NCBI RefSeq assembly: GCF_003334335.1
Contig: NZ_QOWQ01000028.1
Length of the DNA: 64,000 nt
Origin: Escherichia coli
GTDB taxonomy: Bacteria; Pseudomonadota; Gammaproteobacteria; Enterobacterales; Enterobacteriaceae
Reading direction: 5' to 3' (one strand)
Made by a program: the position numbers
In this document: positions 1 to 3,000 of the stretch, one piece after another
Numbering within the stretch: the first letter of the stretch is position 1
Layout: each line of letters begins with the position of its first letter

Positions 1-3000
1 CGCTGATAAGCCTGGTTGACGGGCAGGGTAATCCGGTGAGCGTGGAGGTCCAGTCCGTCACCGACGGCGTGAAGGTGAAAGTGAGCCGGGTTCCTGACGG
101 CGTTGCCGAGTACAGCGTGTGGGGGCTGAAGCTGCCGACGCTGCGTCAGCGCCTGTTCCGCTGTGTGAGTATCCGTGAGAACGATGACGGTACGTATGCC
201 ATCACTGCCGTGCAGCATGTACCGGAGAAAGAAGCCATCGTGGATAACGGGGCGCACTTTGACGGTGACCAGAGCGGCACGGTGAATGGTGTCACGCCGC
301 CAGCAGTTCAGCACCTGACCGCAGAAGTCACCGCAGACAGCGGGGAATACCAGGTGCTGGCGCGCTGGGACACGCCGAAGGTGGTGAAGGGGGTGAGCTT
401 TATGCTTCGCCTGACCGTGGCAGCGGACGACGGCAGTGAGCGGTTGGTCAGCACGGCCCGGACGACGGAAACCACATATCGCTTCACGCAGCTGGCGCTG
501 GGAAATTACAGGCTGACAGTCCGGGCGGTAAATGCATGGGGACAGCCGGTGCACATACCCATTCGATGACATTTGTTTCAGGTGGTTCCAGTGGTGCTCC
601 GGGAAGTGGATCACCTGATTATTCTAAATACAGTGTTAACACTTCTTCTGCAGGCGCTCATACGCACTCTGTATCGGGTACTGCTGCAAGCGCAGGTGCA
701 CACGCACATACTGTCGGTATTGGTGCTCATACGCACTCCGTTGCGATTGGTTCACATGGACATACCATCACCGTTAACGCTGCTGGTAACGCGGAAAACA
801 CCGTCAAAAACATCGCATTTAACTATATTGTGAGGCTTGCATAATGGCATTCAGAATGAGTGAACAACCACGGACCATAAAAATTTATAATCTGCTGGCC
901 GGAACTAATGAATTTATTGGTGAAGGTGACGCATATATTCCGCCTCATACAGGTCTGCCAGCAAACAGTACCGATATTGCACCGCCAGATATTCCGGCAG
1001 GCTTCGTGGCTGTTTTCAACAGTGATGAGGCATCGTGGCATCTCGTTGAAGATCATCGGGGTAAAACGGTTTATGACGTGGCTTCCGGCGACGCGTTATT
1101 TATTTCTGAACTCGGTCCGTTACCGGAAAATGTTACCTGGTTATCGCCGGGAGGGGAATATCAGAAGTGGAACGGCACAGCCTGGGTGAAGGATACGGAA
1201 GCAGAAAAACTGTTCCGGATCCGGGAGGCGGAAGAAACAAAAAACAGCCTGATGCAGATAGCCAGTGAGCATATAGCGCCGCTTCAGGATGCTGTGGATC
1301 TGGAGATCGCAACGGAGGAAGAAACCTTGTTGCTGGAAGCCTGGAAAAAGTATCGGGTGTTGCTGAACCGTGTTGATACATCAACTGCACCGGATATTGA
1401 ATGGCCAGCACTGCCGTAGGGTAAAACATATAAATTCTATAATTAGATGTATCTCTCCATTTACGGCAAGGAAGGGGGCTTGGAAGACGTAAAGCATCTC
1501 ACACCGAGATTATTTTTTATATGTCAGGTGTCTGAAGTTTTGCTTTGGCTCTTAAAATGGTTTGCCGCGAGGTTTTGAATTCCCGGGCAATGGCACTTAT
1601 ACTTACACCTGACTTAATTCGTTCGAATACCACCTGTTTCTGTTCTTCATTTAACACAGGTGGTCGACCAAAACGTTTCCCTGCGCCGCGGGCTCTTACT
1701 ATCCCGGAATGAGTGCGTTCAAGTAAAAGGTCTCGTTCAAATTCAGCGACTGCTGAAATTACGTGCATCATCATTTTTCCTGTTGGACTGGTCAGGTCAA
1801 TGCCCCGCAATGCTAAGCAATGCACTCTGATACCTGTTTCGGTCAGTTGTTCCACTGTTTTCCTGATATCCATTGCATTACAACCAAGGCGATCCAGTTT
1901 TGTCACAATCAATTGATCACCACATTTCAGGCGAGCAAGCAACCGGTTAAAACCAGGACGCTCACTGGTTGCTGCTGAGCCGCTAATGTGTTCTTCGATT
2001 ATTTGCTGAGGTTTGATTTTAAAACCTGCACTTTCGATTTCCCGGCGTTGATTTTCGGTGGTCTGATCCAGCGTTGATATCCGACAGTAAGCAAAAATTC
2101 GAGACATAGTGAGACTCTATACGAAATTGGTGTTCATATCATAATGCATCTCAGAAAATAATTTTGATTATTTTTGTGCATATTTGTATGTACACGTTCG
2201 AAAATAAACGAATGCGTATGCAACCCCGTAACTTTGGTGAGACCCAAAATCGATTTTGTGAAAAATGGCTTTAACTCGGTTTGTTTTTCGAGTTCCGGGC
2301 GGACTCAAGGAAGAAGAATAGTGTTGCGTGTTATTTTAACCAGATTTCAAGTTGTTTGGTCGTGGAAAAGTGGAGCAAAATGTTGTTAAAGTGGAAAAAT
2401 GATAAAAAAGTAAGTTTATTATATTACATTTTACCATTTAAATTTTGGTTGTCTTTAAGAACTGATATCGCTGTTTGTAATAATTCTTTGTTATCCAGCC
2501 ATGATTTTTTCTTTATGTTTCCTTCAATGTAATCAAGCAATGTTCTGGTATTGATAGGTCTTCCCTGTTTTGCTACTTCCACTACAGCATCCCCTAGGAT
2601 AATTCTGACTTCAGGAAGCTGCGCAGGGAACCACTTTAGGGTGTCTTTTGATTTCATGAATATATTCCTTAAAATATTATTGATTTTCATTGCGATATTG
2701 TATGTCTGATTCAGGATATGTTGACTTATACATCGGTTTTGTCTGGGTTATTGGATATGCCAATCCCTAATTTTATTAGAGCATGACTAAAAATGCTGAA
2801 TATGATAAGGAGCGAAGTGATTATCAGTATGCTGTTCATATAGCCTCGAATTAATAATGTGTTATATATGATATAGTTGACAATTTTTATCCTGGGTGTT
2901 CTTAAAGTTCGTAGATAAACATTGTCGTTTCAGGTATACAGGAATGCTAACAGATGGCGGCAAAAATCAGGCGGTTTATGGCGCAAGCTGAAGTGGCAAC

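Follow-up and report, generated by a model that had tools for sequence, protein, structure and literature searches.

Two overlapping tail-gene frames at the right end of an Escherichia coli Qin prophage, very probably the scar of an old J::stf deletion

Near the left end of the Escherichia coli sequence analysed here, two reading frames that both encode tail-protein-like sequence overlap on the plus strand. The sequence, referred to below as the window, is a stretch of 64,000 nucleotides from contig NZ_QOWQ01000028.1. How did two frames of this kind come to lie across each other? The initial annotation offered two answers, namely that a deletion had brought remnants of two different tail genes together or that a frameshift had occurred, and it suspected a disagreement of one base around positions 536-541.

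The ORF list and a three-frame translation give the same picture of the two frames. Frame 3 contains no stop codon from the start of the window to a TGA at 567-569. In frame 2, a stop codon at 437-439 is followed by an open stretch that begins at 440 and closes with a TAA at 842-844; its earliest ATG is at 536. The first ORF, open from the window start to 567-569, and the second, open from about 440 through 844, had both been located correctly in the initial annotation. The suspected disagreement of one base is not real. Bases 538-541 are GGGG followed by A, which is identical to the intact J gene of YZLc23-1, and the window equals that gene base for base over 445-546. On the other side, the alignment of window 543-1500 with an intact stf-tfaQ sequence has zero gaps. 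These gap-free alignments to intact J and intact stf rule out a frameshift or a miscount at 536-541.

On the evidence of its sequence, the window begins in the right-end part of Qin, a defective lambdoid prophage inserted in ydfJ. From Qin it runs into the ydfJ-mar-lsr-gadBC chromosomal region, and window 656-64000 is collinear with positions 1,635,073-1,571,726 of K-12 MG1655 at 99.87% identity. The ydfJ site and the tfaQ-pinQ-ydfK-ynfT right end identify the prophage as Qin. The Qin prophage of CFS3292, a genome with the same junction, is sequentially composed of ynfO, a 5' fragment of nohA (small terminase), a J pseudogene, a tail-fibre pseudogene, tfaQ, pinQ, ydfK, ynfT, and a truncated ydfJ. 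The RefSeq annotation (PGAP) describes the J pseudogene as 'missing N-terminus and C-terminus' and the tail-fibre pseudogene as 'missing N-terminus', while tfaQ, pinQ, ydfK, and ynfT are intact.

The tail-fibre assembly gene tfaQ occupies 844-1419 on the plus strand and encodes an intact protein of 191 aa (WP_000885600.1 in CFS3292, whose sequence equals the window across this stretch). The start codon of tfaQ and the stop codon of stf share bases in the sequence TAATG. An Rfam match to IS009 (RF02111) at 1187-1385 on the plus strand scores 221 bits, above the gathering threshold of 117. This match lies wholly inside the tfaQ coding sequence, and for that reason it is doubtful as an independent RNA gene. 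A second Rfam match, to the Hfq-binding sRNA STnc560, is located at 12780-12993 on the plus strand (281 bits). This is the mgtS-dgcZ region, and the K-12 annotation places the sRNA MgrR there on the other strand. The Rfam scan placed no RNA element at the junction described below.

Frame 3 encodes an internal piece of the tail-tip, or host-specificity, gene J. The piece lies at 1-546 on the plus strand, with codons 520-700 at 3-545, and extends leftward beyond the window. The product of 3-545 is identical at 181 of 181 residues to residues 520-700 of the annotated intact 1132-aa gpJ of YZLc23-1, and window 1-546 shares 99.3% nucleotide identity with the gene (L004 12001-12546). With the J gene of ATCC 8739 (L003 6623-7171), window 1-549 aligns without gaps at 92.2% identity. 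Intact J contains the Pfam domains FNIII-A_GpJ, Phage-tail_3, Ig_J (PF24421, 610-714), Ig_J_second, Phage_Tail_Tip, and Ig_GpJ_C, in addition to a weak fn3 match at residues 628-701. The fibronectin-like segment had been associated with lambda J-type host-specificity proteins; the complete amino acid identity with gpJ, the Ig_J domain, and the weak fn3 match bear this out, and the similarity to J is strong.

The homology of window 3-545 to gpJ covers the central Ig-like/FN3-like domains. A complete functional gene is not present. The break at residue 700 truncates Ig_J 14 residues short of the end of the domain, and Ig_J_second, Phage_Tail_Tip, and Ig_GpJ_C are missing after residue 700 of 1132. 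Both the start and the 3' end of J are absent from the fragment. The N-terminal part is also lacking in the two carriers checked, by 281 codons in CFS3292 and by about 210 in NCTC9040. The J piece is a pseudogene fragment.

Frame 2 encodes the 3' remnant of the side-tail-fibre gene stf, at 543-844 on the plus strand. The remnant comprises codons 909-1007 and the stop codon (window 545-844), corresponding to the GxHxH-repeat C-terminus of the protein. All 99 residues and the stop are identical to residues 909-1007 of the intact 1007-aa Stf of the ATCC 8739 Qin prophage, and window 543-1500 aligns to stf-tfaQ of that genome (L003 12001-12958) at 98.4% nucleotide identity without gaps. The Gly/His-rich tail-fibre C-terminus that had been traced through 844 is the last 99 codons of this 1007-aa Stf. 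The corresponding part of intact Stf gives weak Pfam matches to the Phage_fiber repeat.

The GxHxH-repeat C-terminus and the adjoining tfa chaperone gene mark the remnant as Stf. The N-terminal attachment domain (PF08400), the shaft repeats, and the collar occupy residues 1-134, 462-546, and 798-845 of intact Stf, respectively; all three are deleted, and none is found in the window. RefSeq labels the equivalent of window 638-844 'tail fiber protein, incomplete, missing N-terminus'. Within the C-terminal part, the segment at 543-656 is variable and unlike K-12 StfQ (GAHQHKSSGAFGGTNTSIFPNGYTAISNLSAG...). Given the 99.87% identity with K-12 to its right, position ~656 is, to judge from the alignment, a mosaic boundary inside the fibre tip.

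The two remnants meet at a deletion junction at 543-546 on the plus strand, where a 4-bp microhomology, CAGC, is common to the J side and the stf side. The window is identical to J of YZLc23-1 over 445-546 and diverges at 547, where the window has C and J has A. Identity with stf begins at 543, and position 542 is A in the window and T in stf. These two limits of identity place the crossover within CAGC at 543-546. If the J-side mismatch at 547 is allowed, the shared stretch becomes CAGCNGG (543-549). A three-way alignment of the window, J, and stf contains no indel on either side of the junction.

At position 543, J codon 700 has its first base and stf codon 908 its second. Because the codon phases of J and stf differ at this position, the joint is out of frame, which accounts fully for the switch of frame. 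The J reading frame ends out of frame at 547-569, with seven stf-derived codons read in the wrong frame (PVHIPIR) and the TGA at 567-569. The stf frame acquires, by chance, an ATG derived from J at 536. The resulting mechanical ORF of 102 codons (536-844, plus strand) consists of M-G-T followed by Stf 909-1007, and RefSeq handles it as a pseudogene.

Intact relatives show what lies between the two pieces. At the same ydfJ site, ATCC 8739 carries a prophage with complete J (3480 bp), lom, stf (3024 bp), tfaQ, pinQ, and ydfK, and YZLc23-1 carries an intact gpJ gene (3399 bp). The free phage mEp460_ev081 has the J-lom-stf-tfa-pin order of the ATCC 8739 prophage. In ATCC 8739, the endpoints of the junction are 4836 bp apart, and the interval contains the final 1.4 kb of J, the lom gene, and the opening 2.7 kb of stf.

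The frame switch is thus almost certainly, as far as comparison of genomes can tell, the scar of an old deletion in Qin that joined the middle of J to the last 99 codons of stf. Its length of ~4.8 kb and the exact ancestor are approximate, since the nearest intact J (YZLc23-1) and the nearest intact stf (ATCC 8739) come from different genomes. Of the two answers offered at the outset, the fusion of remnants of two tail genes is the one that stands, as the J and stf pieces lie 4.8 kb apart with lom between them in intact relatives. A comparison with the lambda J-lom-stf-tfa genes and the Rac stfR locus had been suggested. The relevant prophage is Qin at ydfJ, not Rac or lambda itself. What the two pieces are, where exactly they meet without indels, how long the missing stretch is and what it holds, where in the chromosome it lies, and how common the joint is are all shown directly, and nothing contradicts the deletion itself.

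The ancestral prophage would have had the order J-lom-stf-tfaQ-pinQ. A single illegitimate deletion of the RecA-independent type, between two copies of CAGC, would have removed ~4.8 kb, comprising the last ~430 codons of J, lom in its entirety, and stf codons 1-908. After the out-of-frame joint, the J frame runs seven codons into stf sequence and stops at 567-569, and the stf frame, open only since 440, carries the last 99 stf codons to 844. The one feature that suggests a slipped-strand event or microhomology end joining as the mechanism is the 4-bp microhomology, a length not far above chance. Both pieces are presumably remnants without function, in a prophage that also lacks the head genes and most of the tail genes. 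The junction would since have been passed on vertically within a subset of E. coli.

A 91-bp probe spanning the junction (window 500-590) is covered to at least 80% in 91 of 5426 complete E. coli genomes. The occurrence of the junction in 91 independent complete genomes means that it is not an artefact of assembly or sequencing. By megablast, window 1-1500 was found whole in 94 of the 5426 genomes, with the RefSeq labels 'host specificity protein J', 'tail fiber protein', and 'tfaQ'. The junction region is 99.9-100% identical across carriers. Common to about 1.7% of complete E. coli genomes, the J::stf scar is a modest lineage marker. Among 50,697 phage records, none covers at least 80% of window 1-1500, and phage matches are confined to the part from about 650 on (stf-tfa). 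Lambda matches window 695-1406 at 94.5% identity.

The sequences upstream of the joint indicate the order of events. In CFS3292, to the left of the window (L001 19054-19290), nucleotide ~237 of nohA is joined out of frame to nucleotide 843 of J at a 3-bp CCA microhomology. NCTC9040 has exactly the same J::stf joint, with one mismatch over window 1-1500, at 841. Its upstream part (L007 2449-3077) is different and contains full nohA, a terminase fragment, a head-tail joining gene, and a portal fragment joined to nucleotide 632 of J. Since the same J::stf joint is combined with different upstream joints (nohA::J and portal::J), the J::stf deletion is the shared one and came first, and the deletions upstream of it followed later and are nested. 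In YZLc23-1 (L004 17406-17408), stf is joined to chromosomal ydfI, and tfaQ, pinQ, ydfK, ynfT, and the ydfJ remnant have been removed. To all appearance this stf::ydfI joint is another independent decay product at the same locus.

Could the stf remnant nevertheless have been kept for a function? The 102-codon ORF (M-G-T plus Stf 909-1007) might encode a small fibre-tip protein that, together with the chaperone TfaQ, benefits the host, for example by receptor masking. ATG 536 belongs to the reading frame of the stf remnant, the stop of stf and the start of tfaQ share bases, and tfaQ and pinQ are both intact. A precedent exists in the cryptic prophage e14, whose fibre fragment StfE2 blocks adsorption of phage T2 (PMC12529663). 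However, a promoter and terminator scan of 1-1600 left the plus strand empty; the two promoter-like sites found, against a chance expectation of 1.3, are both on the minus strand. The sequence upstream of ATG 536 (GGCGGTAAATGC) contains, by eye, at most a weak Shine-Dalgarno-like match. The near-complete identity among carriers is consistent with recent common descent, and selection could not be detected from it. Quite different stf remnants, or none at all, occur in other lineages, and PGAP calls the ORF region a pseudogene. Retention of such a protein is therefore very unlikely. The same low probability attaches to the fuller conjecture, by analogy with StfE2, that the ORF is expressed and that the mini fibre-tip would bind an outer-membrane receptor and protect the host from phages using that receptor.

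A different explanation for the deletion itself would invoke the neighbouring gene pinQ, which lies at 1517-2107 on the minus strand and encodes an intact serine recombinase of 196 aa. Serine invertases occasionally use secondary sites. PinQ might accordingly have made a site-specific deletion by using a crossover site in stf together with a secondary one in J, given that the intact gene is only 0.7 kb downstream of the junction and that the enzyme is catalytically active (PMC12529663). Candidate sites are not apparent. The window contains no gix- or pix-like 26-mer at up to three mismatches, although with the consensus used this is a weak test. A fuzzy search for e14 pix between stf and pinQ of ATCC 8739 (L003 9001-13700), allowing up to nine substitutions, gave no match, and the real e14 pix (AAACCTTGGTTTGGGAGAAGG) bears no resemblance to the junction (GGGACAGCCGGTGCA). 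Inverted sites of ~26 bp of the AAACC-NN-GGTTT type, which delimit Pin/Gin/Cin invertible segments, are absent from the window. No alternative inverted stf'/tfa' set is present in the window, in ATCC 8739, or in phage mEp460_ev081; as a positive control, the repeat search recovered the e14 pix sites. In a published study, E. coli genomes were probed by BLAST with entire prophage sequences, and Pin-dependent inversions turned up in e14 alone, with none in Qin (PMC12529663). A deletion made by PinQ is thus less probable still than a retained fibre tip, and pinQ is best regarded as context that plays no part in the formation of the junction.

Two further observations concern pinQ. One inverted match of 12 nt, which pairs stf at L003 11384-95 with window ~1568-79 in the 3' end of pinQ, has a gix-like look. 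It offers only one plausible half-site, lies inside the pinQ coding sequence, and was judged to be due to chance. In addition, pinQ is intact beside a dead fibre remnant though there is no invertible segment here. A 2025 paper reports an action of PinQ in trans on the P segment of e14 that blocks adsorption of phage T2 (PMC12529663), and this trans action could explain the retention of this end of Qin.

The least credible explanation is a frameshift, the other answer offered in the initial annotation, taken here as a one-base indel, a sequencing error, or a programmed ribosomal frameshift within one tail gene: two frames of tail-protein-like sequence do overlap, and the G run at 538-541 could slip in principle, but each frame has its homologue in a different gene, with 4.8 kb between the two in intact relatives, there is no indel against intact J up to 546 or against intact stf from 543, the same sequence recurs in 91 independent complete genomes, and no continuous gene, whether a tail-fibre homologue with a simple indel or any other, crosses the junction in the 50,697 phage records.

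Related loci display a separate pattern of deletion in stf. In Qin/Rac-type prophages, many independent deletions end at one dinucleotide, T11398-A11399 of L003 (ATCC 8739). With the dinucleotide set off by hyphens, its context is GGTCGGG-TA-ACCGCGCTGACAG, and the encoded protein is KGRV-TALTDNTQG. Including the allelic base, the sequence at L003 11394-11401 is GGTCGGG-TA-(A/G)CCGCGCTGACAGACAATACGCAGGGGG, or GGG-TA-(A/G)CCGCGCTGACAG in motif form. At least 11 partners are joined to this point. They include nohA (K-12), terminase at two positions, portal at two positions, head protease, and tape measure. Further partners are a sequence that we take to be gpI-like, J (in a Rac prophage), the N-terminal part of stf, one sequence without assignment, and the middle of tfa in the opposite direction. 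The junctions were found in loci L002 (K-12), L008, L009, L011, L012, L013, L014, L016/L041, L027, L034, L035, and L052; the nohA::stfQ joint of K-12 is one of them. The hotspot itself is inside the interval deleted from the window, and the J::stf junction of the window is elsewhere, not at the hotspot.

A native TA is present at the crossover in four of the six left partners checked, namely nohA, tape measure, protease, and the N-terminal part of stf. The native portal and A30 terminase partners lack it and have TG and CA, respectively; the tfa partner has TA. We suspect that the hotspot arises from a site-specific break or from TA-specific recombination. A hairpin at the hotspot is not significant (z = -1.2), and a boundary of Rac/Qin homology is not supported as the cause in K-12. 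A BstEII-type GGTNACC site is disfavoured, as junctions also occur on the TAGC allele without that site. For a pix-like site, the aligned core would sit about 17 bp from the crossover.

The J::stf junction is already known, in that both of its pieces are annotated in RefSeq (PGAP) as incomplete pseudogenes, and it is a case of ordinary prophage decay. It matters little in itself; its value is that an apparent frame switch turns out to be a junction between pseudogenes of a defective prophage that is already well known.

Compared with the intact Qin-type module, as found in ATCC 8739, mEp460_ev081, and lambda, both fragments of the window are colinear pieces, with an identity of 92-99% for J and 98% for stf-tfaQ. 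The window differs in that the 4836 bp that separate J codon 700 from stf codon 908, the whole of lom among them, are missing, and its two frames are not joined. The Qin prophage of K-12 MG1655 (nohA-stfQ-tfaQ-pinQ-ydfK, in ydfJ) shares the site, the right end, and the gene order with the window, and both forms have lost morphogenetic genes by internal deletion. However, K-12 Qin has a nearly full-length nohA joined directly to the last ~301 codons of stf, with no J left. The window type retains J codons up to 700 (282-700 in CFS3292) and only the last 99 codons of stf. Neither form is derivable from the other by deletion alone. The result also shows that the Qin remnants of K-12 and of the window lineage are separate decay products of a fuller ancestor, one like the ATCC 8739 prophage. 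Grounded, or defective, prophages that decay stepwise by internal deletion, reportedly treated in an earlier publication, display the same pattern of alternative and nested deletions at one locus. There is no difference of substance between them and the Qin prophage of the window, which provides one more example.
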